Source: an uncultured Erysipelotrichaceae bacterium (lineage in GTDB: Bacteria > Bacillota_I > Bacilli_A > Erysipelotrichales > Erysipelotrichaceae). Taken from it: a stretch of 32,000 nucleotides of DNA. Where the stretch lies: the NCBI GenBank assembly GCA_964401865.1, contig CAYNZZ010000001.1, positions 150,001-182,000 of the forward strand, read 5' to 3'. This document shows, one piece after another, positions 2,708-26,020 of the stretch. Every line of letters starts with the position of its first letter. Within the stretch, counting starts at the first letter, position 1. The notes under the pieces were generated by a model that was given only the letters and a program-made list of their open reading frames with translations, did not search any database and was not told the origin of the DNA. The translations under genes were made by a program, and so were the position numbers.

Positions 2708-2724
2708 TTGAAAGGATGATTTTG

Positions 2725-4014
2725 ATGTCTAACATTATTAAAAGAGATTATTACCTTAAACAGATTATTGATAAAAAAGAAAATGGTTTGATTAAAGTTA
2801 TTACTGGCATAAGAAGATGTGGTAAGAGTTATTTGTTATTTAATTTATTTTACGATTACCTAATAAATAATGGGATTAGTAAAGATAATATAATCGCCAT
2901 TGCCTTAGATGATGATTTATATGTTAAGTATCGAAATCCTGACGAATTATCAAAGTATATCCGCGAAAAAATAATCAATAATGATATGTATTATATTTTA
3001 ATTGATGAAGTTCAATATGCCATTAGTAAAGAAGAATTAAAAAATTCTGAAAACATCAAATTGTATAATGTGTTAAATGGTTTAATGCGACTTCGTAATG
3101 TAGATATTTATGTTACAGGATCAAACTCTAAAATGTTAACCAAAGATGTTTTAACAGCTTTTAGAGGAAGAAGTGATGAAATTAAGATGTATCCAATAAC
3201 TTTTAAAGAATACTATAATTTTGTTGGTGGTGATAAATCAGATGTTTATGAAGAATATGCTTTATATGGAGGAATGCCCTTAGTATTGAATAAAAAAACT
3301 GATACCGAAAAAGTAAATTATTTAAAAAGCCTTTTTACTGAGGTTTATTTCAAAGACATCATTGAAAGATATAGTATTGAATTACCTGAGGTATTAAATG
3401 AATTAACAGATGATTTATGTTCTTCAATTGGCTCATTGACAAACGCTAATAAGATTGCGAAAACTCTAAATTCAATCAAAAATATCAAAGTATCTAGTAA
3501 CACAATAGCGAGTTACTTAGACTATTTAATGGAATCATTTCTTTTTAATAATGCGAAAAGATATGATGTCAAAGGTAAAAAGTATTTTGAATATCCATCA
3601 AAATATTACTGCACTGATATTGGACTTAGAAATGCAAGACTTAACTTTAGACAGCAAGAAGAAACACATATTATGGAAAATATCATTTATAACGAACTTA
3701 TTAGTCGTGGATATTTAGTTGATGTTGGAGTTGTGGAGATAGTTGAAAAAATAGATGAAAACCGAGTTAAAAAACAATGTGAAATCGATTTTGTTGTAAA
3801 TAAAGGCACAAAAAAATACTATATCCAATCAGCATTAAGTGTTTCAGATCCTAATAAACTAAAAACAGAAATCAGACCATTATTAAATACTAAAGACTTT
3901 TTCAAGAAAATATTGATAAGTAAAACTTCAATGAAGCCTTTTATTGATGAAAATGGGATTCTTCATTTAGGGTTATATGAATTTTTATTAAATGAAGATT
4001 CACTAGAATTGTAA
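2725..4014 (+). CDS. AAA+ ATPase of the AAA_14 / DUF4143 (COG1373-like) type
   Basis: Walker A is GIRRCGKSYLL and Walker B is YILIDEVQY. The C-terminal region (CEIDFVVNKGTKKYYIQSALSVSDPNKLKTEIRPLL) is characteristic of DUF4143-containing ATPases. The SD AAAGGA at 2710-2715 abuts the ATG at 2716 but is 9 nt from the ATG at 2725, so 2725 is preferred. Confidence 0.85.
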   Translation: MSNIIKRDYYLKQIIDKKENGLIKVITGIRRCGKSYLLFNLFYDYLINNGISKDNIIAIALDDDLYVKYRNPDELSKYIREKIINNDMYYILIDEVQYAISKEELKNSENIKLYNVLNGLMRLRNVDIYVTGSNSKMLTKDVLTAFRGRSDEIKMYPITFKEYYNFVGGDKSDVYEEYALYGGMPLVLNKKTDTEKVNYLKSLFTEVYFKDIIERYSIELPEVLNELTDDLCSSIGSLTNANKIAKTLNSIKNIKVSSNTIASYLDYLMESFLFNNAKRYDVKGKKYFEYPSKYYCTDIGLRNARLNFRQQEETHIMENIIYNELISRGYLVDVGVVEIVEKIDENRVKKQCEIDFVVNKGTKKYYIQSALSVSDPNKLKTEIRPLLNTKDFFKKILISKTSMKPFIDENGILHLGLYEFLLNEDSLEL

Positions 4015-5398: not shown

Positions 5399-6132
5399 TA
5401 GAGGTAAGAAATTTAGCTAAATCTTTTGAAGGCAATGAAGTTTTAAAAGATATTAATTTACGGATAGAAAAAGGCGATGTAATATCAATTCTGGGATCTT
5501 CCGGTTCTGGTAAAACAACTTGTCTTCGCTGTATGAATTTTTTAGAAAAAGCCGATAGAGGTACATTAGTATTCGATAATAAAGAATATGATTTAGCTAC
5601 TATTTCCAAAAAAGATATTAGTAATATTCGGAAAAAGACAGCATTTGTTTTTCAAAACTATAATCTTTTTTTGAATAAGACGGTCTTAGAAAATGTAATG
5701 GAAGCTTTGGTGGTCGTTAGAAAATATGATAAAGAAAAAGCCAGAGATAAAGCTATCGAGGTTTTAAAAAAAGTGGGGATGGAGAATAAACTAGATGCCT
5801 ACCCCATTAAATTAAGTGGCGGTCAGCAACAAAGAGTATCAATAGCCAGAGCTTTAGCATATGATCCTGAAGTTATCTATTTTGATGAGCCAACTAGTGC
5901 TCTGGATCCCGAACTTATTGGCGAAGTACTGCAAGTTATGAGAGAGCTTGCGAAAAGCGGGATTACCATGGTGGTGGTTACTCATGAGATGAATTTCGCT
6001 CGCAATGTTTCGACTAAAGTCGTATTTATGGAAAATGGCAGAATAATTAAAGAAGCCAAGCCGGAAGAATTTTTTGAAAGGCAGGATGATGAAAGAATCT
6101 TGCAATTTATAAGAAAGGTAGGAGAACAATGA
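5395..6132 (+). CDS. Amino-acid ABC transporter ATP-binding protein (GlnQ/TcyC-like)
   Basis: Walker A is GSSGSGKTT, the signature motif is LSGGQQQRV and Walker B is VIYFDEPTSALD. It overlaps the next gene by 4 nt. Confidence 0.95.
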   Translation: MIEVRNLAKSFEGNEVLKDINLRIEKGDVISILGSSGSGKTTCLRCMNFLEKADRGTLVFDNKEYDLATISKKDISNIRKKTAFVFQNYNLFLNKTVLENVMEALVVVRKYDKEKARDKAIEVLKKVGMENKLDAYPIKLSGGQQQRVSIARALAYDPEVIYFDEPTSALDPELIGEVLQVMRELAKSGITMVVVTHEMNFARNVSTKVVFMENGRIIKEAKPEEFFERQDDERILQFIRKVGEQ

Positions 6133-6927: not shown

Positions 6928-6960
6928 GAGATCTTAGTTTGATACTAAGGTCTTTTTTTG
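6928..6960 (+). terminator. Rho-independent terminator of the ABC operon
   Basis: GAGATCTTAG (6928-6937) pairs with CTAAGGTCT (6945-6953, one mismatch) and is followed by a T7 run. Confidence 0.7.
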
Positions 6961-7026
6961 TATAAAAATATTGTTTTTTTTATTTATTTATATGTATAAT
7001 GATTGCGTGTTTTATTGGAGGACAAA

Positions 7027-7830
7027 ATGGGAATATACGAGATATTAGAATCAAAAAAAGATATCAGAAAAGGTTCGGATATCTGTGATTTTAATGGTTA
7101 TTTAGAAGACTATATTGATAGCGTTGATGAAGAAGAAAAAATATATCCAGTGTTTAAGAAATTGCTTGAACATGATGATAGTTTAAGAGTCATTGTAAAT
7201 TTAAAAACATCGGTATCAAAAGAATCTATTTCAAATCAAATCATTCGCTATAAAGATATATTTAAATTAGGAAATCAAGCTATTGTTTTACCTTGGATTA
7301 TATATTCAAAAAAAGGTGAAGAACAAAAGGCATTACTAATTGTTAATGATGATTATATATGTGCTAAAGGTATGTACTATTCTTTAACTGAACCATCAAG
7401 TGAGTTTCAAGAAGTAAAAAATGATATTGTGGCTGTTGGTCTCAGAAACACAGATGAAGTTGTTGAAGCATTTGAAAAGTTATATACAAAAAGAGCAGGA
7501 CAAATTCAACGTGATTTAGATCATAAACATTTTAAGAATTATGATGAAGCATATGAACACGCCCTAGAACTATCAAATTCTATTGGCGATAATTTGATCA
7601 CTAATAGCAAAGAATGCGAAGATAAAGAAATGTTTATCCGTTCATGTGTATCGAGATGGTTCTTGATTAAGAAATATGTCTATGTTCAATTTATGGTAGA
7701 TAAGAGTATTCTTAATACTAAATTTGAAGGCAATGTAAAGGCCCAAAGAAATCAAGCGAAACAAAATGCCGATAGTATTAGGTTTGTTTCTATCTTAGAG
7801 ATTAGAAAGGCAATAGAAGAGAATGCATAA
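7027..7830 (+). CDS. Hypothetical cytoplasmic protein (268 aa), no family recognised
   Basis: GGAGG at 7017-7021 lies 5 nt before the ATG at 7027; the ORF-track TTG at 7003 has no SD. TATAAT is at 6995-7000. The ORF is long and uninterrupted in AT-rich DNA, and the gene has its own terminator. Confidence 0.75.
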   Translation: MGIYEILESKKDIRKGSDICDFNGYLEDYIDSVDEEEKIYPVFKKLLEHDDSLRVIVNLKTSVSKESISNQIIRYKDIFKLGNQAIVLPWIIYSKKGEEQKALLIVNDDYICAKGMYYSLTEPSSEFQEVKNDIVAVGLRNTDEVVEAFEKLYTKRAGQIQRDLDHKHFKNYDEAYEHALELSNSIGDNLITNSKECEDKEMFIRSCVSRWFLIKKYVYVQFMVDKSILNTKFEGNVKAQRNQAKQNADSIRFVSILEIRKAIEENA

Positions 7831-7848
7831 TGCTGCATTCTCTTTTTA
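7818..7848 (+). terminator. Rho-independent terminator overlapping the stop codon of the 7027-7830 gene
   Basis: AGAGAATGCA (7818-7827) pairs perfectly with TGCATTCTCT (7834-7843) and is followed by TTTTAAAA. Confidence 0.7.
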
Positions 7849-7872
7849 AAATGCTAAAAATATCGTATAATT

Positions 7873-8823
7873 ATGTCTATGAATAAAAACAATGGATCAT
7901 CAATTATTCCCTTAATATTTTTTATATTCTTCATATCGACAGGTGGTTTTGGGCTATTTAGTTTAATACCGGTTTTTGTTGTGTTCTTTGTCTTTTTTGC
8001 AATATTTAAAAGTATATTTAATTCTAACAATCAACCGCAGGCAAGGTCGAGAGTTAGAAGCACTGCAAGAAGCAATAACACTGCTAAAAGTTTATCTAAC
8101 AGAGATCGTAGCCGAATAGATAAGAAATTAGCTAGATATTTTAGGCAGAATATTAAGTTGCCTATTTTAGATAATATTTCTCTAACCACTAAAAACGGTA
8201 ATTATACAGTGATTGAAGAATTATATATTTCTATGGGTGATGAGTTAATCATCTCGATGGATGATTTTAAGAATAATTATCCTGATATGTATTCGAGGAT
8301 ATGTGATTTGTTGCTGGTTTTCTCTAAGCAGGAAGATGAAGTTTTAAATGCTGAAGTTAAGGTAGAAGAAGTGAAGAAAGAAGAAAAACTGTCAGATGCC
8401 GAAAAGTATATTGATAAGATTAATTCTTTAAATAATGATATTCCCAATGAAGAAGTTACTAATGGTTTATATCAGACATCGGCTCTTTTAAAACAAATCG
8501 AGTTGTCTGCTGATAAGGATGATGAAGATAAGTTATCTAAATTATATGATTATTATTTGCCTATTCTTACTAAGATTTTAGAGAATTATAAGACTTTATC
8601 TAAGGTAAATGGCGATAGTGAAGAAATAAAAAAGAGTGAAGTTCAATTGATTAAGACGATAATTTTAATTAACGAAGCACTTAAAGAATTGAATAATTCT
8701 TTACATGAAGATGAATATATGAATCTATCTGCTGATATTACTACATTACAGTCATTGTTAAAAAAAGATGGTTTAGTCAATTCTAATCCATTCCAGAAAG
8801 AGGATGAAAATGGAGAAAAATAA
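7873..8823 (+). CDS. Membrane-anchored protein with 2 N-terminal TM helices, a basic linker and a coiled-coil C-terminus; possibly XpaC-like (PF10112-like)
   Basis: TM helices are IIPLIFFIFFISTGGFGLF and LIPVFVVFFVFFAIF, followed by an R/S/K-rich linker. The C-terminal LSKLYDYYLPILTKILENYKTLSK resembles the YLP...LL..Y motif of XpaC (5-bromo-4-chloroindolyl phosphate hydrolysis) proteins, which also have 2 N-terminal TMs. The family call is from memory and unverified. The start may instead be the ATG at 7879. Confidence 0.7.
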   Translation: MSMNKNNGSSIIPLIFFIFFISTGGFGLFSLIPVFVVFFVFFAIFKSIFNSNNQPQARSRVRSTARSNNTAKSLSNRDRSRIDKKLARYFRQNIKLPILDNISLTTKNGNYTVIEELYISMGDELIISMDDFKNNYPDMYSRICDLLLVFSKQEDEVLNAEVKVEEVKKEEKLSDAEKYIDKINSLNNDIPNEEVTNGLYQTSALLKQIELSADKDDEDKLSKLYDYYLPILTKILENYKTLSKVNGDSEEIKKSEVQLIKTIILINEALKELNNSLHEDEYMNLSADITTLQSLLKKDGLVNSNPFQKEDENGEK

Positions 8824-9316
8824 GATTGATGATATTTATTCTTTGTTAGATGAAATTACAAATGATGAGAGAAAAAATGATATTAGTCAAAAAGATGATA
8901 ATTTAAATGGCCGAAGATCTAAGAATTTAGCAGGTATTGCCAAAACTATTAATCAAAACAGAATTGTGAGGAAACCTATTTTACCAAGTATTACAAGTTA
9001 TAGTAATCGTTTTGATTGTTTTGAAAAGCTGATCGAAAACTGTGATTATGGTTCGGTATATTCAGAGAGTTATGTTGAAGGTCATAAAGAAGCACTTTAT
9101 AAATATTTGGATAGTGCCAAAGAAAATCCAAATAACTTATTTATTGCTGAAGGAAAGCTTAACGATGAGATAAATAAATATGCTAGAGCGAGTAAATCAT
9201 CAATATATGTCAAAGGATACTATGATGGTTTATTATATGTGTATAAGGCATTTAAACGTTCAAAAGAACTCATAGCAGATAATATCTATAAGATTTTAAA
9301 AAGAGAGATTGGCTAA
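8810..9316 (+). CDS. Hypothetical protein (168 aa), no family recognised
   Basis: The ORF overlaps the upstream gene's end. GAGG at 8800-8803 is 6 nt from the ATG at 8810 and abuts the ORF-track ATG at 8804. Its stop overlaps the next start (TAATG at 9314-9318). Confidence 0.7.
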   Translation: MEKNKIDDIYSLLDEITNDERKNDISQKDDNLNGRRSKNLAGIAKTINQNRIVRKPILPSITSYSNRFDCFEKLIENCDYGSVYSESYVEGHKEALYKYLDSAKENPNNLFIAEGKLNDEINKYARASKSSIYVKGYYDGLLYVYKAFKRSKELIADNIYKILKREIG

Positions 9317-11301
9317 TGAAATACAATGAAGAAAAAGAAAGATTGATGAAAGAAGTATTAGGGAAAAATCGAAATTTTTCAACTGCTTATAGTGATTCAT
9401 TAGATGTTTTAAAAGAAACTGAAACTGAATTGCAGAAGATTATTGATCGAAATAATCGAGCGATTACAGAACTCAAAAGTAATGCGACAATGTCAGATAA
9501 CGATTTAAAATCGTTGAAGAAGGAAATTGAAAAAGATTTCAATGTAAAGATTGATGCACCGGAAAATATTGTTTATGGTAAGGCATCAAAAGAAGTATTT
9601 GATAAGATTAACGAAGAATTAAAAGCCATGGTAGTCGGTCAAGAAGAAGCAGCTGATTTGATGACTATTGCATTCAGAAGACCTTATGTTACAGGGGCTA
9701 ATCCAATGAAGATTAGGAATTCTATATTACTTACCGGCAACAATGGCAGTGGTAGGCACCTATTGGTGAATAGTATGGCTAATCTATTGAAAAAGAATGG
9801 TTTAACAACATCGAATGAAGTTTTTACTATCGATATGTCACGCTATCAGTCGCAAAGTCAGGAAGCATTATTTTTACAGGACTTATATGTTTCTTTGCAA
9901 GGAAAAAATCCCATCGTTGTAATTGAAAATTTTGAGAGTTCATCACCAGTTTATAATCGCATGTTGGCAGAACTTACAATAACTGGTAAATGTAATCTCA
10001 ATAAACGTTATGTTTTTGCCAATAACCAACTTCAAGAGGCTACCAGCAAGCTTACAAAAGAATCTATTGATCATTTAGAAGGCAATAACAAAACGCTTGT
10101 CTATATATCGGAAAATAAACCTTCAAAGATTATGGATTATTTTGGTAAATCTTTTATTGATGCGATTGATGATAAAATTAGTACTGTTTTATTAGATGAG
10201 GATGCTTTAAATATCATCATTGATAAAATGATGGCTTCGTTTAAACAGAAATGTACAAATCAGCTAGAAATGAATATTCAGATTGATGGCTCGGTTAAAG
10301 ATTATATTAAATCATGTTTTGAACCTAACGATGGTGTTGATTCTATCTCGCCAATCATCAATAAGATTTATGATGAGATAGTAGATTTAGCTTTACGCAA
10401 TGAGAATATTGTAACTTTGACATTGAAATATGATTCACAGGTAATTGCTTATAATGATCAAAATGAATATGCATTGGAATTGATGGATGATTCAAAATAT
10501 GAAAGAGAAGCGATACAGAAAGAACTCGATGAAATAGTTGGTCTTAATACGGTTAAGGAGTATTTGTTAAGTCTTGAAAATCATATTAAGGTTTCCAAAC
10601 TTCGCAAACAAAAAGGTTTGAAGACAGCTGAAGTATCTAAACATATGATATTTACTGGTAATCCTGGTACTGGTAAGACTACTATTGCAAGACTTATTTC
10701 AAGAATGATGAAGGCTTGCGGTATCTTAAAACAAGGTCAACTAGTCGAGGTTACTAGGGCTGATTTGGTTGGTAAATATGTTGGGCATACCGCTCCTCTT
10801 ACGATGGATGTTATACAGAGCGCTATTGGTGGTGTATTATTCATTGATGAGGCATATTCTTTATATCGTGGTAAAGATGATTCTTTTGGCTTAGAGGCTA
10901 TTGACACAATCGTTAAAGCGATGGAAGATCATCGTGATGATTTGATAGTAATATTAGCTGGTTATTCTAAGGAAATGGAAGATTTCCTTACGGCAAATAG
11001 TGGACTTAAATCAAGATTTGCAAATATAATTCACTTTGAAGATTACACAGGTGAAGAATTAATGCTTATATCCAAGAGTATCGCAAAATCGAAAGACTAT
11101 GTCATTGAAAAAGAGGCTTTAAAACCCCTTCAAGACTATTTCACTATTGTTCAAATGCGTAAAGATTCTACATCCGGTAATGGTCGTCTAGCTAGAAATC
11201 TAGTTGAAGATGCTATACTTCGCCAGTCAAAGCGTCTATTAGATAATCCTGATTATGCAATGGATGTCTTAAAACTTGAAGATTTTAATTTGAATAATTA
11301 A
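9316..11301 (+). CDS. Tandem AAA+ protein: coiled-coil N-terminus, degenerate Clp/Hsp100-D2-like module, intact SpoVK/CbbX-type AAA+ module
   Basis: The C-terminal module has Walker A GNPGTGKTT (10657-10683), Walker B VLFIDEAY (10834-10857), LIVILAGY, SRF and GNGRLARN, as in the SpoVK/CbbX/EccA family. The N-terminal module reads VVGQEEAADLMTIAFRR...ILLTGNNGSGRHLL...IDMSRYQS...IVVIENFESS and aligns by eye to Clp D2 (ViGQdeA...R.......l.GPtGvGKTeL...iDMSEY...vvLfDEiEKA). It has lost the P-loop Lys and the Walker B Asp-Glu. Confidence 0.85.
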   Translation: MKYNEEKERLMKEVLGKNRNFSTAYSDSLDVLKETETELQKIIDRNNRAITELKSNATMSDNDLKSLKKEIEKDFNVKIDAPENIVYGKASKEVFDKINEELKAMVVGQEEAADLMTIAFRRPYVTGANPMKIRNSILLTGNNGSGRHLLVNSMANLLKKNGLTTSNEVFTIDMSRYQSQSQEALFLQDLYVSLQGKNPIVVIENFESSSPVYNRMLAELTITGKCNLNKRYVFANNQLQEATSKLTKESIDHLEGNNKTLVYISENKPSKIMDYFGKSFIDAIDDKISTVLLDEDALNIIIDKMMASFKQKCTNQLEMNIQIDGSVKDYIKSCFEPNDGVDSISPIINKIYDEIVDLALRNENIVTLTLKYDSQVIAYNDQNEYALELMDDSKYEREAIQKELDEIVGLNTVKEYLLSLENHIKVSKLRKQKGLKTAEVSKHMIFTGNPGTGKTTIARLISRMMKACGILKQGQLVEVTRADLVGKYVGHTAPLTMDVIQSAIGGVLFIDEAYSLYRGKDDSFGLEAIDTIVKAMEDHRDDLIVILAGYSKEMEDFLTANSGLKSRFANIIHFEDYTGEELMLISKSIAKSKDYVIEKEALKPLQDYFTIVQMRKDSTSGNGRLARNLVEDAILRQSKRLLDNPDYAMDVLKLEDFNLNN

Positions 11302-11620
11302 TGCTATATATTTAAAAATAAAGTTTTTAAAAATGATGAATAACTAAATTGTAGGTGTTTTTATAAAGGATATTAAAATGCCTATTTTGATGGTAAAAAA
11401 AATAATTACTTATATTGCTTAAAGTGACTATCGGCTTTTAACGCATAAGCAACTAGCATATATTTGGATTTTTCCATTATTGTTAAATCCGCAACATTAG
11501 TGTAAAATTTAATTATAAGGGAGATAGAATGGTTAACTATAATCTTGGTAGGTATAAGAACGGAGAAATACAATAAACATTTTGTGTTTTTGTTAGCGTT
11601 ATAAAAGAAAGGATTTAATT

Positions 11621-12133
11621 ATGAAAATTCAAAAAATAGTATCAATTTGTGCTAGTGCACTTCTTCTGCTTACATTATCGCCTGCTTTAAGTTCGAATAT
11701 ATCGGCTGAAGAAGAATACAAGCCTTGTAGTGTTTCTAAATTTCCTGTTCCAGAAGAAGAAAGAGTAATTCTCATATCTGACAATTCGTATATCACAGTT
11801 AGTAGAGGAGCCGTTATTACAAAATGGGTAGATTCAACATATAGCATTAGAATTCAAGATGTAGGTGGTAGTTGTGTATCTAGCGCTAAAGTCAGAATCA
11901 CTGGGCAATATTCTTATGATTCTACATCCAACGAAATTTTAAGCGTTGATTTATCTTCACAAGTAACATATGTTCCACCATTATGGACGGTGGAAGTTCA
12001 GCGTTCATTTTACACAATTGTTGGGCAAGGCATTACATATAGTATAAATTACTGTTCCAGAGTTGATGATCCATATTCTTGTTTAATTGGTGGAGGCAAC
12101 TGGTATAATCAAGCGACTTTTACAATTAGATAA
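11621..12133 (+). CDS. Secreted protein (170 aa), unknown family
   Basis: It has a signal peptide (MKIQKIVSICASALLLLTLSPALS|SN), an SD AAAGGA upstream, a mature part rich in beta-strand-like alternation, and 4 Cys. Confidence 0.75.
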   Translation: MKIQKIVSICASALLLLTLSPALSSNISAEEEYKPCSVSKFPVPEEERVILISDNSYITVSRGAVITKWVDSTYSIRIQDVGGSCVSSAKVRITGQYSYDSTSNEILSVDLSSQVTYVPPLWTVEVQRSFYTIVGQGITYSINYCSRVDDPYSCLIGGGNWYNQATFTIR

Positions 12134-12166
12134 TTATATTATTGCTTATTAAAATAAATAAAACCT

Positions 12167-12412
12167 ATGTCAAAGAAAAATAAAAAATGGATTATCGTTA
12201 CAAACAAGCTTACATATTTATTATTTTTAACGGTGCCTATTGGGCTTTTAAAGATATTCTTATATGATATTAAATTTGATGATATGGTAAATATGATTAC
12301 TCAAATATTCATTTCAATCATCATTGCATTTTTAGGTATCTACTTCTTCATAAAACTAAATTCTTATTCAGAATGGATGAATCATAATCATCCAAAACCT
12401 GATGATAATTAA
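12167..12412 (+). CDS. Small membrane protein (81 aa, 2 predicted TM)
   Basis: A basic N-terminus (MSKKNKKW) is followed by two hydrophobic helices (LTYLLFLTVPIGLLKIFL and ITQIFISIIIAFLGIYFFI). It starts 33 nt after the secreted-protein gene and is followed by a strong terminator. Confidence 0.6.
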   Translation: MSKKNKKWIIVTNKLTYLLFLTVPIGLLKIFLYDIKFDDMVNMITQIFISIIIAFLGIYFFIKLNSYSEWMNHNHPKPDDN

Positions 12413-12468
12413 CTAGGGTCCGATATAAAAAGATTGATTTAAATTATCTAGTAGGTAAATTTTAAAAA

Positions 12469-12512
12469 GGGATATAGAAAATCATATTTTATGATTAACT
12501 ATATCCTTTTTT
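12469..12512 (+). terminator. Rho-independent terminator
   Basis: GGATATAG (12470-12477) pairs with CTATATCC (12499-12506), with inner AATCAT/ATGATT pairing, and is followed by a T6 run. Confidence 0.75.
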
Positions 12513-12739
12513 GGTGTTTGGCTAATTCATAAAATAATTATGTTTAATAGGAAAACTAAGAGTGGCTAATTTATTAAGGCAATACATTATTCAATATTCA
12601 ATTTATGAAACTTTTTAAAGTCCGTATTCTTTTTATAATTCTTTATATTTATTATATAAAAGTACAGTTCAACAGTATGCAAGATTATTCATGTTCAGTT
12701 TTAAATAATGATTATTGGAGAATATGGTAAAATGAAAAT

Positions 12740-14059
12740 ATGTTAAGTGATACTATTTGTGCAATATCGACTTCTCTATCTAATGGGGCTATTTCCATTG
12801 TGAGAATGTCTGGTGATGAGAGTTTTAATATTATTAAAGAAGTGGCACATATCGATGATAGTAAGATTAAGGCTAATCATGTAATATATGGTCATATTTA
12901 CGATAAAGATGAAAGAATTGATGAAGTATTGATAAGCTTTTTTGTGGCTAAACATTCATACACCAAAGAAGACATCGTTGAAATTAATTGCCATGGTGGC
13001 ATTTATGTTACTAGAAAAGTATTAAATATATTGATTGAAAAAGGAGCTAGACTTGCGGAAGCTGGTGAGTTTACTAAACGTGCATACTTAAATGGCAGAA
13101 TTGATTTAGCTAATGCCGAAGCAATCAATGACTTAATTAATGCTAATAATGTCTATCAGGCAAAATCAGCTATGAAAGGAATTGATGGCAGCATTCAAAG
13201 ATTACTAGATCCCATCATTTCAAAGATGAAAGATGTTTTGTCGATGATAGAAGTAAATATTGATTATCCTGAATATGAAGATGAAAAGGATATGACACAA
13301 TCAGAAATTAAACCACATCTAATTGAGTGGAAAGAACTATTTAATGAGATGATTGATAAAGCTGAACGTTTTAGAGTTGTTAAAGATGGTCTTAAAACAG
13401 TTATCATCGGTAAGCCTAATGTCGGTAAGAGTTCGCTATTAAATGCCTTACTTGAAAAAGATAAGGCAATAGTAACCGATATTGCCGGCACGACAAGAGA
13501 CTTAGTTGAGGGGCATGTCAATTTGAAAAATACATCTTTACATTTAATTGATACAGCAGGAATAAGGCAAAGTGAAGATGTTGTTGAAAAGATAGGTATC
13601 GAAAAAAGCATTCAGGCTTTAAATGATGCTGAACTTGTAATACTGGTTCTTGATGGTTCAAACGATTTAGATGATATAGATAAAGAACTACTAGATTTAA
13701 GTGCTAATAAAAGACGAATTATTGTTTACAATAAGAAAGACATCAAAAATCATGATGGCATCTCCATCAGTGCTATGAATAAAGATATTAAGCCATTAAT
13801 AGATGCGATTGATGAAATGTTTGAAAACGATACAGTCTTAGTTGATGAGGATATTTTGAACAACGAAAGGCAGATAGCTTTAATGAAGAAAGCATTAAAT
13901 GAGATTAATTATGCACTTAATGATTTAGATGATATGCCAATTGATGTCATATATACATCAATTATGGAAGCTTATCATTACTTGTCAGATATTTTAGGTC
14001 GAGAATATAAAGAAGATTTAATAGATCATATGTTTAGGAATTTTTGTTTAGGTAAATAA
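12740..14059 (+). CDS. mnmE: tRNA uridine-5-carboxymethylaminomethyl modification GTPase MnmE (TrmE)
   Basis: N-terminus DTICAISTS..GAISIVRMSG, G-domain GKPNVGKSSLLNAL / DIAGTTRD / DTAGIR, and the diagnostic C-terminal FCLGK. Confidence 0.95.
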   Translation: MLSDTICAISTSLSNGAISIVRMSGDESFNIIKEVAHIDDSKIKANHVIYGHIYDKDERIDEVLISFFVAKHSYTKEDIVEINCHGGIYVTRKVLNILIEKGARLAEAGEFTKRAYLNGRIDLANAEAINDLINANNVYQAKSAMKGIDGSIQRLLDPIISKMKDVLSMIEVNIDYPEYEDEKDMTQSEIKPHLIEWKELFNEMIDKAERFRVVKDGLKTVIIGKPNVGKSSLLNALLEKDKAIVTDIAGTTRDLVEGHVNLKNTSLHLIDTAGIRQSEDVVEKIGIEKSIQALNDAELVILVLDGSNDLDDIDKELLDLSANKRRIIVYNKKDIKNHDGISISAMNKDIKPLIDAIDEMFENDTVLVDEDILNNERQIALMKKALNEINYALNDLDDMPIDVIYTSIMEAYHYLSDILGREYKEDLIDHMFRNFCLGK

Positions 14060-22654: not shown

Positions 22655-25600
22655 CTATTCAGATCTTAACGCATTTACAGGATCTTGTTTAGCCGCTTTT
22701 CTTGAAGGGATTAAGCCAGATATCAAAGTTAGTACGACACTAATGCAAATAAGTATCAAAGCCGGGATTGGATTTAACACTGCTGTAATATCTGCATTAA
22801 CACTATGAATCACGCTATTGATTGGCAATAGTAATAAATATGTAACTAAAATACCTAAACTTCCTGACAATAATCCGATAATGAAAGTCTCGGCATTGAA
22901 TATTGATGAGACATTATTTTTTGAGGCACCCATAGCTCTTAAAATTCCTATCTCTTTCGTTCTTTCCATAACACTTATCAATGTGATTACCGCAATCATT
23001 ATTGACGAAACGATCAAACTAATTGATACAAAAGCAATCAATACATATGTCACACTACTGATAACTGTTTGGACGCTAGACATTAACAAACCAGTCATAT
23101 CGGTGTATGAAATTTGTTTTTCTTCTGTAACAGAATCGTTATATTTATCGATTAAATCTAAAAAATCACTCTTAGCATCAAAACCATTAAAGTAAATAGA
23201 CATAGACGAAGGTTCTTCTATGTCTTGATAACCTAGGAATATAAGATTGTTATTGTAACTTGCGTTTGTTCTTTGCATCATGCTGGACATTAATCTAGAT
23301 AATTCGTCTTCATCCATATTGAAATTGAATGCTTTTTTAAATTTATCGGCATCAACAGTCATGATATCTTTGCTAAAAACATCTTGAAGTCCTGACAGAG
23401 AAGAAAGTGTAGGTTCCATTACTGCTTGAACGCTAGAACCAATCGATGCAGCAACTACATAGAAAGTATAATTATTTATGATGTTATTGATTGCTGAAGT
23501 AGTATAGGCGATAGCTTTTTCGTTTCCCATAACATCAGACAATAATTTCAAACTAACAATAGGATTGGTAAGATCGTTTGGATTTTTGTATATTACAAAA
23601 GTTTGTTTATCATTTATCTGGTCCAGATAATCTTTAAACATATCTTTTGATGAATCTGGCAAAGAGTCTTTAGTATATGATTCATAAATTACTTTGTTGT
23701 TGAAGCTGATGTTTTTGACTTCATCGTAATAATTTAAAAACATTTCTCTAACACTGCTTGATAGATTTTCATAATCGCTATCTTGCAGAACTTGAAGCAA
23801 TTCTTTGTATTGGCTTGTTTCAGGGCTGATCTCTAACATATAGTTTAAAGTATTTTTATAGTTATTTTTATCAATATTTAAACTAAAAGTATCGACATTA
23901 TCTAAGCTTAATGTAACAACGCCATTTTCTTTATCAACTTCAGTTATATTATCTTTCTCATAAGAACTGATATAGTTTTGCAGCATGCCGGTATTAATGA
24001 TGGTGAAGATACTTACCATGTCATTTACACTTGGACCGCTCGTGATTGAATCGACAGTTTTTGATGCATTATCAAAAATGATTTTTTGCAGTTGCTCTTC
24101 GCTTATTGTGTCAAATTTAAAGTCACTTTCGGATATATTAACTTTAAATGCCTCTTTTAACAAATTTTCATCAATAGAAACTAAATCATTAAAATCAATG
24201 TCATTTCCCTCAGAATCGTCGCCGAATTCAGTATTAGAAAAGATATCAATGTTTTTGTTAGCTAATTGCTTTTGCACAATAACAGATTTTTCTGCATCTT
24301 CAATAATGCGATATATTAATTCGTCACTGTACAAAATTCCTGAACTGTTATCATCACTTAAAGCGATTCCGGTAATTTTCAACTGCGTACTCTCGTCATA
24401 GACTTTTTGCATATGAATTTCATCTTTCGACATATCTTCATAAGTATTGTAGTCACTGTTATATTTGTACAGTTTATTTGCATCGATGAGCTTTAATTCT
24501 ATATCCATCAATTCATCATAAGAAATAACCATTTGTTTATTTCTAATCGTCACATCTTCGCCGTTCATTATCTGCTGGATAATTTTTTGCAATTCATTAA
24601 TATCTCTCAATCCTAAAGAATACACAAACAAGTCGGATATCATATCTTTAGAATTTAACACCATTAACACTTCATCGTAATTATGAGGGTATTCTCCTGC
24701 TAATAGAGTTTTGCCTTTTTCGATTTCATCGAAATCAGCTTTCATAAAAGAAGAGCCCATACCGTTTGATGCAGACATTGAAGATATCATCGATACTACT
24801 GCATCAGAGTAAATCGTTGACATTATAGTACTAGGATTTAATTGTACAATTTTATTGTTGACATCTCTTGTGTAAATTAATGGTGAGACTGAATAAGAAT
24901 ATTCTATTTTTGTCACAATATCATGGTGCAAATTTTCATTATTTTCTAACCATTCTTTAAAACTTTTAATATCATTAGAACCAAAACTATTAGTTATTGA
25001 AGTGATGATAGGTATTTCTTTAACGTAGCCATCTTCTATTTTGTCATCGCTTTCTAACTTTTTACCCATCATACTACCGAAGAAATTATTGGTATCACTT
25101 TGGATAGTTAAAGGATAAGAAGCCATAGTATCTTCTTGTATTTTATCTACATAGTTCTGAAAACCTTGGGATAGTGACAAAATCAGAGCGATACCAATAA
25201 TACCGATTGAACCGGCAAAAGCCGTTAATATCGTTCTTCCTTTTTTAGATAAAAGATTATTAAAAGACAGTGATAAAGCTGTGGACAAGTTCATCTTGGC
25301 TTTCCCTAAGTTACGATGAGTTACAGGCTTTTCTTCTTCTATAATAAATGGATCACTATCGCCAATGATTTTTCCATCTTTGATATTTACGATTCTTGTG
25401 GCGTATTCTTTAGCTAATTCCGGATTGTGCGATACCATTACTACTAATCGATCTTTTGCCACTTTTTTCAACAAATCCATAACTTGATAGCTAGTTTTGC
25501 TGTCAAGGGCACCCGTTGGCTCGTCGGCAAGTAAAATATCTGGATCATTTACCAATGCACGTGCAATAGCGACACGCTGCATCTGTCCGCCTGACATTTG

Positions 25601-26020
25601 ATTAGGTTTTTTATGAGCTTGTTCTTTTAAACCTACTTCTTCTAACGCTTGAAGTGCTTTCTTGGTTCTTTCTTTTTTCGGAACTCCTGAAATGGTTAAA
25701 GCCAACTCAACGTTTTTTAATACTGTTTGGTGAGAAATTAAGTTGTATGATTGAAAAACAAAGCCTATTGTGTGGTTACGATATGAATCCCAGTCTCTGT
25801 CCTTGTATTTTTTGGTTGAGACAGAGTTGATAATCAAATCTCCTTCGTCATAATGATCTAATCCGCCGATGATATTTAGCAATGTTGTCTTTCCTGAACC
25901 ACTTGGTCCAAGTATGGCTACGAATTCATTGTCTCTTAAATTCAAACTTACATCGTCCAAGGCTTTTTGAACTAAATCGCCAGTTTTATATACTTTTTTG
26001 ATATTTTTAATCTGTAACAT
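22655..26020 (-). CDS. Fused ABC transporter ATPase plus MacB/FtsX-type permease with a very large extracytoplasmic domain
   Basis: The N-terminal ATPase has [18 protein letters not shown] and [14 protein letters not shown]1 spans about residues 262-285, followed by a roughly 690-aa non-hydrophobic region. The C-terminus is an FtsX-type 3-TM bundle ending [16 protein letters not shown] lies 7 nt upstream of the ATG. Confidence 0.9.

Follow-up and report, generated by a model that had tools for sequence, protein, structure and literature searches.

The window analyzed here, a 32-kb stretch of contig CAYNZZ010000001.1 from an uncultured Erysipelotrichaceae bacterium, contains four co-directional genes, g1 to g4, on the (+) strand at positions 7027-11301. 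An XpaC-family membrane protein (g2) and a two-tier AAA+ ATPase with one live pore-loop tier (g4) are invariably co-encoded in this bacterial family, and the same string of genes often includes the orphan g1 and TelA as well. We propose, with about even confidence and on the basis of comparative sequence analysis, that g1 to g4 represent a vertically inherited chromosomal cluster of the Erysipelotrichaceae that extends the XpaC-TelA envelope-stress module with a dedicated AAA+ chaperone. By analogy with XpaC and TelA proteins of other bacteria, cell-envelope maintenance rather than phage defense would be its most likely role. The four open reading frames (ORFs) had been listed in an initial annotation of the same sequence and are present as described there, g1 encoding 267 amino acids.

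Relatives of the cluster were collected in a pattern-limited genome scan that covered one genome per species and used a narrow alignment of the D1 module of g4 (described below) as query. The scan returned 347 species with a g4-family relative. ORFs were called in the fetched loci and then searched with profiles of the four window proteins, and the locus counts given here (79, 71, or 60 informative loci, depending on the gene) rest on the best 80 of the 347 species, nearly all of which are labeled Erysipelotrichaceae or one of its genera (Solobacterium, Bulleidia, Galactobacillus; metagenome-assembled genomes). A g2 homologue lies directly upstream of g4 in all 79 informative loci. Where g3 is missing, the two genes are mostly spaced by −7 to +13 nucleotides (nt), and g2 and g4 are usually translationally coupled. 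g1 is found upstream, usually right before g2, in 46 of 71 loci, while g3 was detected in 15 of 79, mainly in the lineages nearest the window. The earlier proposal of a conserved g2-g3-g4 trio thus holds for g2 and g4 and fails for g3. Likewise, its "1+3" layout is borne out by the physical overlaps of g2 to g4 but does not describe a closed unit, as the supposedly separate g1 is a recurrent partner and g3 is dispensable.

Of 60 informative loci, 23 have TelA (PF05816) downstream of g4 on the same strand, and in nine of these it is directly adjacent to g4. These relatives contradict the notion of an operon that works without TelA, and the system is therefore better described as an expanded XpaC-TelA module than as an alternative to one; the absence of an adjacent TelA gene is a peculiarity of the window's lineage. 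L086, the cluster that has diverged furthest among those found (35% identity across the N-terminal 395 residues), still has the order g1 ... g2-g4-TelA. Sequence identities to the window proteins are correlated between loci (r = 0.86 for g2 versus g4 and 0.85 for g1 versus g4), a pattern that fits vertical co-inheritance; shared phylogeny alone would also give this result, and the correlations do not prove interaction. The window locus itself recurs unchanged in many assemblies.

g2 (7873-8823, +) encodes a 316-amino-acid membrane protein that belongs to the XpaC family at the level of family profiles. After a transmembrane (TM) hairpin (residues ~11-49, nt ~7903-8019), a basic linker leads into an alpha/beta middle domain (residues 76-152, nt 8098-8328); an acidic linker then connects the middle domain to a PF10112-like domain of four helices (residues 175-298, nt 8395-8766). 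Hydrophobic segments at residues ~11-29 and 30-49 coincide with helices 12-21 and 32-49 of an AlphaFold2 (AF2) model. Because an Arg-rich, basic linker follows the second TM segment, we infer that the C-terminal domain faces the cytoplasm. Taken singly, the window protein scores 22.0 bits against PF10112 (Halogen_Hydrol; E = 1.8e-4), below the gathering cut-off of 29.8 bits; across the g2 family, 50 of 52 members match the same profile (E < 0.01; 1.5e-9 for the best member). Many g2 relatives also carry precomputed PF10112 hits, and one NCBI record is named as a PF10112 family protein. The initial annotation had described g2 as a two-TM, XpaC-like protein, and this description stands at the family level. 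No solved structures with sequence similarity to the XpaC or TelA families were found, and Foldseek returned no significant PDB match for the AF2 models of g2 and g3 (best E 0.4 to 0.7; none below 0.7 for g3), leaving an ESCRT-III/PspA-like fold for either protein unsupported. Separately, g1, g2, and g3 were each considered as a cryptic TelA and were ruled out, with hhalign probabilities below 1%.

g4 (9316-11301, +) encodes a 661-amino-acid ATPase composed of an N-terminal region and two AAA+ modules, D1 and D2. Its C-terminal module, D2 (10507-11301), is an intact AAA+ domain of the SpoVK/CbbX/EccA clade with AAA_lid_6 (1.1e-13). Residues 398-650 match the PDB entries of CbbX (2.5e-57) and EccA1 (2.2e-54). 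D2 carries Walker A GNPGTGKT (10657-10680), the pore loop KYVGHT (10774-10791), Walker B FIDEAY (10840-10857), sensor-1 ILAGY, the segment NSGLKSRF with its SRF arginine finger, and sensor-2 GNGR. Among 43 diverse members of the family, GNPGTGKT, YVG, DEAY, GY, SRF, and GNGR are 95-100% conserved; for ILAGY, NSGLKSRF, and GNGR, conservation is 93-100% at all positions except one variable residue in each of the first two. By its sequence features, D2 is a member of the SpoVK-CbbX-EccA higher-order clade as defined in PMC11513918. g4 as a whole nevertheless scores below all three NCBIfam equivalog cut-offs of this clade: 310.8 bits against TIGR02881 (SpoVK; cut-off 422.95), its best NCBIfam match, 257.7 bits against TIGR03922 (EccA; 466.65), and 249.6 bits against TIGR02880 (CbbX; 459.25). 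ClpB equivalog scores amount to 24-37 bits against cut-offs above 1200. Because the defining features of these groups were tested and not found, g4 lies outside the SpoVK, CbbX, EccA, and Clp/Hsp100 families in the strict sense.

Ahead of D2 lies a second AAA+ module, D1 (9583-10455), a degenerate Clp/Hsp100-D2-type domain that includes the small domain. A profile of g4 residues ~90-375 aligns with the D2 modules of ClpC, ClpE, ClpB, Hsp104, and ClpA at E = 3e-23 to 1e-11, and the alignment takes in the Walker A and Walker B regions, the segment IDMS[RE][YF], and the small domain; searches with the single sequence gave matches as well. At the catalytic positions, the P-loop reads GNNGSGRH (9736-9759) in place of GxxGxGKT, and VVIEN replaces the Walker B pattern hhhhDE. 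Family-wide, the P-loop is G..G.G[RK]H and Walker B ends in E-[NH]; because both are degenerate and the segment of the Clp pore loop is shortened, this tier is probably non-catalytic. The first 90 residues of g4 (9316-9585) comprise the motif EKERLMKEVLGK, a variable helical/coiled-coil linker, and the motif EIEKDF just before D1. The first of these motifs (residues 5-17, 9328-9366) follows the pattern [DE]x[DE]xL[ML]xx[VI][FL]G across this whole AAA+ family. The earlier picture of g4 as a coiled coil joined to a dead Clp-D2-like and a live SpoVK/CbbX-type module is thus borne out by profiles and motifs.

The family defined by the degenerate module comprises 146 representative clusters at E < 1e-10, and many of its members are proteins of 620-730 amino acids with the same architecture at 25-35% identity. 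Six longer relatives (P0285, P0295, P0307, P0343, P0350, and P0314; 950-1620 amino acids) combine a D1-like module with two to four tandem SpoVK-type modules, each with its own AAA_lid_6; P0314 additionally has N-terminal tetratricopeptide repeats (TPRs), as in EccA. Among the long relatives examined (900-1600 amino acids), no Rosetta-stone fusion to XpaC or TelA was found.

The two remaining genes encode orphans. g1 (7027-7830, +) encodes a cytoplasmic protein that is a conserved partner of the cluster in relatives; in the family alignment, the polar residues C20, N23, N70, D77, E122, N132, Q161, R162, D165, K215, K216, Q240, and R241 are invariant. g3 (8810-9316, +) encodes a helical protein of 168 amino acids in which a disordered linker joins a conserved, acidic-hydrophobic N-terminal helix to a C-terminal domain of four helices with an invariant KGYYDGL; its AF2 model has a mean predicted local distance difference test (pLDDT) score of 76. 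The N terminus of g3 (residues ~7-18 of a 170-amino-acid ORF, ~8822-8857) carries IDDIYSLLDEI, which loosely resembles the N-terminal motif of g4. The idea that g3 had been fused into the longer g4 proteins (705-735 amino acids) of g3-less loci was rejected; these proteins begin with the same EKxRLWNEV, and their extra length falls in the variable linker.

The functional setting of the cluster is suggested by the literature. The initial annotation assigned xpaC-yaaN and the AAA+ gene yjoB to the sigma-W regulon, and they are indeed among its core members (PMC3498285). xpaC is also induced in the LiaR and CesSR regulons (PMC10269926), and XpaC of Enterococcus faecium, with TelA present, controls daptomycin binding and phospholipid microdomains (PMC6811118); TelA affects sensitivity to nisin and tellurite, according to work cited in PMC12791056. 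As described by Delerue et al. (PMC11513918), members of the SpoVK-CbbX-EccA clade are specialized chaperones with few, often envelope-related clients that are recruited via variable N-terminal regions; several act on envelope-synthesis enzymes, and no link to a peptidase is reported there. The literature, which was incompletely covered and without the figures of PMC11513918 that show "SpoVK-like" operons, yielded no description of an XpaC-AAA+ linkage or of the reversed two-tier architecture. This agrees, within the same limits, with the earlier impression that no system linking XpaC to an AAA+ ATPase had been described.

On this background, a working model for the cluster can be drawn. g4 would assemble as a hexamer in which the C-terminal ring alone hydrolyzes ATP and threads or remodels a client, while the degenerate ring and the N-terminal helices would serve assembly and docking. 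g2 would tether g4 to the inner face of the membrane or would itself be the remodeled client. The ATPase would act on a narrow set of membrane-proximal targets, with TelA, g1, and g3 as candidate clients or cofactors, much as SpoVK acts on MurG, CbbX on RuBisCO, and EccA on type VII secretion system (T7SS) or mycolate-synthesis clients. The output would be an adjusted organization of the membrane or envelope under envelope stress. A more far-reaching version, which we put forward tentatively and consider doubtful, holds that the XpaC-like protein and TelA form a membrane assembly that is built or disassembled by an "inverted Hsp100," with a dead HCLR-type ring on a live SpoVK-type ring, and that serves Bacillota-specific membrane maintenance or repair with g1 as an enzymatic or regulatory subunit. 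Such an apparatus would be functionally analogous to the ESCRT-III/Vps4 or PspA systems while being built from unrelated parts and, if true, would offer a first mechanistic handle on the XpaC/TelA family.

Several observations weigh against the proposal of an expanded XpaC-TelA module. A phmmer search found no TelA within the 32-kb window. Neither the single proteins g1 and g3 nor their family profiles gave a match in Pfam, NCBIfam, PADLOC, or PDB sequences, and the roles proposed for them are guesses. The AF2 model of g2 is of moderate confidence (pLDDT 69; predicted template modeling score 0.36). Homologues of g4 also occur without g2 on human-gut and other Clostridia-type contigs, where they stand alone or have varied neighbors (a SprT-like gene, NUDIX, GAPDH, unannotated ORFs), and the N-terminal motif of g4 is kept in homologues both with and without g2; the ATPase therefore does not depend on g2. 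The core client of g4 may accordingly be some other protein of wider conservation, in which case g2 would be a localizer specific to this lineage. Finally, the link to envelope stress is borrowed by analogy from XpaC and TelA proteins of Bacillus, Enterococcus, Lactococcus, and Listeria, which are much shorter than g2.

Occurrence of g4 in varied contexts without g2 would also suit a general machine for membrane-protein quality control or extraction, akin to Msp1 or to an FtsH without its protease, in which g2 is a mere anchor and the biology of XpaC and TelA is irrelevant. The architecture, a membrane anchor plus a putative threading AAA+ protein whose pore loop is intact, also fits such a machine. 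One g4 homologue, on a GC-rich Clostridia contig (L085), has its start overlapped by a SprT-like metallopeptidase gene (5495-6004), and given this upstream partner there may be a proteolytic link in that lineage. The repeated linkage to TelA and g1, however, argues for a specific module, and the SpoVK/CbbX/EccA clade is characterized by a narrow client range and no peptidase link (PMC11513918); we consider a general extraction machine unlikely. The similarity of D2 to EccA (258 bits against TIGR03922; 2.2e-54 against EccA1) raises the further prospect of a secretion or export chaperone with adjacent secreted proteins as clients: a signal-peptide protein, g5, follows g4 in the window, a secreted 5′-nucleotidase-like gene lies between g4 and TelA in ~13 loci, and the long relative P0314 shares N-terminal TPRs with EccA. 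The EccA score nevertheless remains below the 467-bit cut-off, and g4 lacks a TPR domain, as judged by the absence of a Pfam hit. Genes for an EssC/FtsK-type ATPase, WXG100 proteins, and other T7SS components are absent from all annotated neighborhoods, and the downstream secreted genes are variable and missing in many loci, g5 being confined to the window's own species. An EccA-like role is, in our estimate, improbable.

Phage defense or abortive infection, raised alongside envelope stress by the initial annotation, would have the membrane protein sense infection and the ATPase act as effector or activator. In its favor, the initial annotation placed XpaC/TelA among Ter-type stress/conflict systems, g4 gives weak, generic AAA+ matches to the PADLOC models of IetA, DolB, and TRIP13 (E = 1e-8 to 1e-6), and g1 and g3 are fast-evolving orphans. 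These matches (PADLOC-DB 2.0), however, are limited to the generic AAA+ core; g1 and g3 gave no hit, those of g2 were chance-level Cmr5 hits (E > 0.05), and no specific system was matched, consistent with the earlier view that this is not an already named defense system. The cluster encodes no nuclease, TIR, SIR2, or other effector domain. It is flanked by housekeeping genes, among them mnmE, which lies some kb beyond its downstream end in the window and in two related loci (L001 and L003), and jag, which lies upstream in L003. Divergence runs in step with that of the hosts, from 99% to ~33% identity, as expected of vertical inheritance and not of a mobile island. Given these flanks, no defense genes among the annotated neighborhoods of the cluster, and a single weak hit in a search of 2.9 million viral contigs, an anti-phage function is unsupported, and we regard it as quite improbable. 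A sporulation paralogue of SpoVK that promotes MurG or cortex synthesis would account for the best NCBIfam match (TIGR02881 spore_V_K, 311 bits) and for action at the membrane surface, where SpoVK works on an envelope-synthesis enzyme (PMC11513918). Set against this are a score below the 423-bit equivalog cut-off and some 400 residues of helices and Clp-D2-like region where SpoVK has a short, beta-strand-rich N-terminal domain. Sporulation genes were not found in the window, and the cluster is widespread in Solobacterium and Bulleidia, which are non-spore-forming genera; this last alternative is scarcely credible. Overall, an XpaC-TelA module expanded by a dedicated AAA+ chaperone remains the reading we prefer.

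The promoter and ribosome-binding signals around the cluster are consensus matches. A terminator of the preceding ABC-transporter operon (6928-6954) lies upstream of the putative g1 signals at 6996-7026, namely, the −10 element TATAAT (6996-7001) and the ribosome-binding site GGAGGA (7018-7023), the latter 4 nt before the ATG. A scan for promoters in this AT-rich window gave 34 sites, against 29 expected from shuffles, and hence no enrichment. A hairpin followed by a U run spans 7815-7846 on the (+) strand, with a 13-bp stem and the g1 stop codon in its loop. Its folding energy is −16.3 kcal/mol (z = −4.4), a value reached by none of 200 shuffles, and between g1 and g2 it probably serves for partial termination or attenuation. 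Both the TATAAT and the terminator-like stem had been noted in the initial annotation and were recovered here. The hairpin is not kept as a boundary across loci, as the g1-g2 gap is just 21 nt in L005 and L006. No Shine-Dalgarno sequence is evident ahead of g2, and a TATAAT (7857-7862) sits 10 nt before its ATG; the g2-g4 transcript may thus be leaderless, or g2 may be translated after read-through from g1. The physical coupling of the last three genes is as originally described: g2 and g3 overlap by 14 nt, and g3 and g4 share the TAATG at 9314-9318. The ATG at 8810 has a better-spaced GAGG and is also the g3 start (168 amino acids) in public gene calls.

The genes around the cluster are otherwise housekeeping in nature and include those for an amino-acid ABC transporter, MnmE, TatD, IspF, RsmF, a pseudouridine synthase, and dehydrogenases, as well as LexA with a Y-family (impB/IMS) polymerase; no defense genes were seen in the window. 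At its left edge are a transposase gene (rve plus Mu-transposase C-terminal domain; 30-1253, −) and an AAA_14/DUF4143 ATPase gene (2716-4014, +), followed by an Rrf2 regulator gene that diverges from the amino-acid ABC transporter operon. A 1121-amino-acid fusion of an ABC ATPase with an FtsX-type permease (22655-26020, −) resembles a fused MacB-type transporter. Between g4 and mnmE lie g5 (11621-12133, +), encoding the signal-peptide protein of 170 amino acids, and a gene for an 81-amino-acid membrane protein (12167-12412, +), neither with a Pfam hit. No g5 homologue outside the window's own species was present in any fetched locus, and a near-identical strain (L169) has an 85-amino-acid gene at the g5 spot instead, so that this spot varies between strains.

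Related loci show further features downstream of the ATPase gene. The secreted 5′-nucleotidase-like protein (PF02872) mentioned above is 620-730 amino acids long, and the loci that carry its gene between g4 and TelA include L014, L017, L019, L026, L040, L044 (9902-11776), L063, L071, and L081. We find this neighbor curious, since the name XpaC derives from the hydrolysis of a chromogenic phosphate ester. In a single locus (L029:9934-11479), genes for an extracytoplasmic function sigma factor and an RsgI-like anti-sigma factor separate the AAA+ gene from those of the nucleotidase and TelA, and this pair is a possible local regulator of the cluster. Cluster-associated TelA proteins (e.g., L086:8239-9468) carry an invariant I.LTL.P motif within an N-terminal extension of low complexity; the notion of a handle for an unfoldase is speculation.

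The interest of the cluster lies in what it places side by side. In many Gram-positive bacteria, envelope stress induces XpaC and TelA, which influence resistance to daptomycin, nisin, and tellurite (PMC6811118, PMC10269926, and PMC12791056). A conserved operon in which a predicted substrate-threading chaperone stands between an XpaC-like gene and TelA leads to a testable idea, namely, that an ATP-driven remodeler docks on these two proteins or has them as clients. The g4 family, present in at least several hundred Bacillota species and lacking a functional description in the literature as far as covered, widens the SpoVK-CbbX-EccA repertoire of often envelope-directed chaperones. The evidence comes purely from sequence comparison, and the host organisms are uncultured or hard to handle in the laboratory; the linkage should be informative for specialists in both envelope stress and AAA+ proteins.

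Of the systems with which it can be compared, the LiaI-LiaH/PspA and ESCRT-III-Vps4 systems resemble the cluster in their apparent logic: a small membrane anchor, soluble helical proteins, sometimes an AAA+ remodeler, and induction by envelope stress. The distant g4 homologue in L085 is followed (8602-13608) by Band-7/zinc-ribbon and TPM-domain genes of the ydj type (ydjL, ydjH-like), resembling the Bacillus subtilis ydjG-L (PspA) operon (cf. PMC11237479). However, the models of g2 and g3 have no structural similarity to PspA, Vipp1, or ESCRT-III that Foldseek could detect against the PDB, the cluster contains no PspA gene, and g4 has no MIT domain and lies outside the Vps4 family. With the Clp/Hsp100 proteins (ClpB, ClpC, ClpA, Hsp104), g4 shares a two-tier design and a D1 that is homologous to their D2 module, small domain included. 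Hsp100 proteins start with the classical-type module and continue with the HCLR-type one; g4 has the unusual reverse order, a dead Hsp100-D2-type module ahead of a live SpoVK-type one, and its Hsp100-type tier has lost the catalytic residues and the pore loop. The Clp N-domain, the middle domain, and the ClpP-docking loop are likewise missing from g4.

Parallels also exist with the SpoVK/CbbX/EccA clade, from which D2 shares AAA_lid_6, the GY of sensor-1, the sensor-2 Arg, the YVG pore loop, and a conserved Asn upstream of the arginine finger, as listed in PMC11513918; common to both are also the absence of an associated peptidase and a variable, presumably client-recruiting N-terminal region. 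g4 differs in scoring below all three equivalog cut-offs, in having an N-terminal region that is itself a degenerate Hsp100-D2-type AAA+ module, and in being operonic with a membrane protein while showing no link to sporulation, RuBisCO (no RuBisCO genes lie in the window), or T7SS. With the XpaC-TelA pair (xpaC-yaaN; PF10112 plus PF05816), the cluster has in common the N-terminal TM hairpin and PF10112-type helical domain of g2, the same-strand TelA gene found downstream in 23 of 60 related loci, and, by analogy, an envelope theme (sigma-W, LiaR, and CesSR; daptomycin and nisin). It differs in the AAA+ gene (660-730 amino acids) placed between the XpaC-like gene and TelA, in the orphan g1 upstream, in the additional alpha/beta middle domain of g2, in a g2 score below the PF10112 threshold, and in the lack of an adjacent TelA in the window's lineage. 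B. subtilis XpaC has ~200 amino acids, and the g2 of the cluster is ~110 amino acids longer. Taken together, its closest functional likeness is to an XpaC-TelA module supplemented with a SpoVK-class chaperone.

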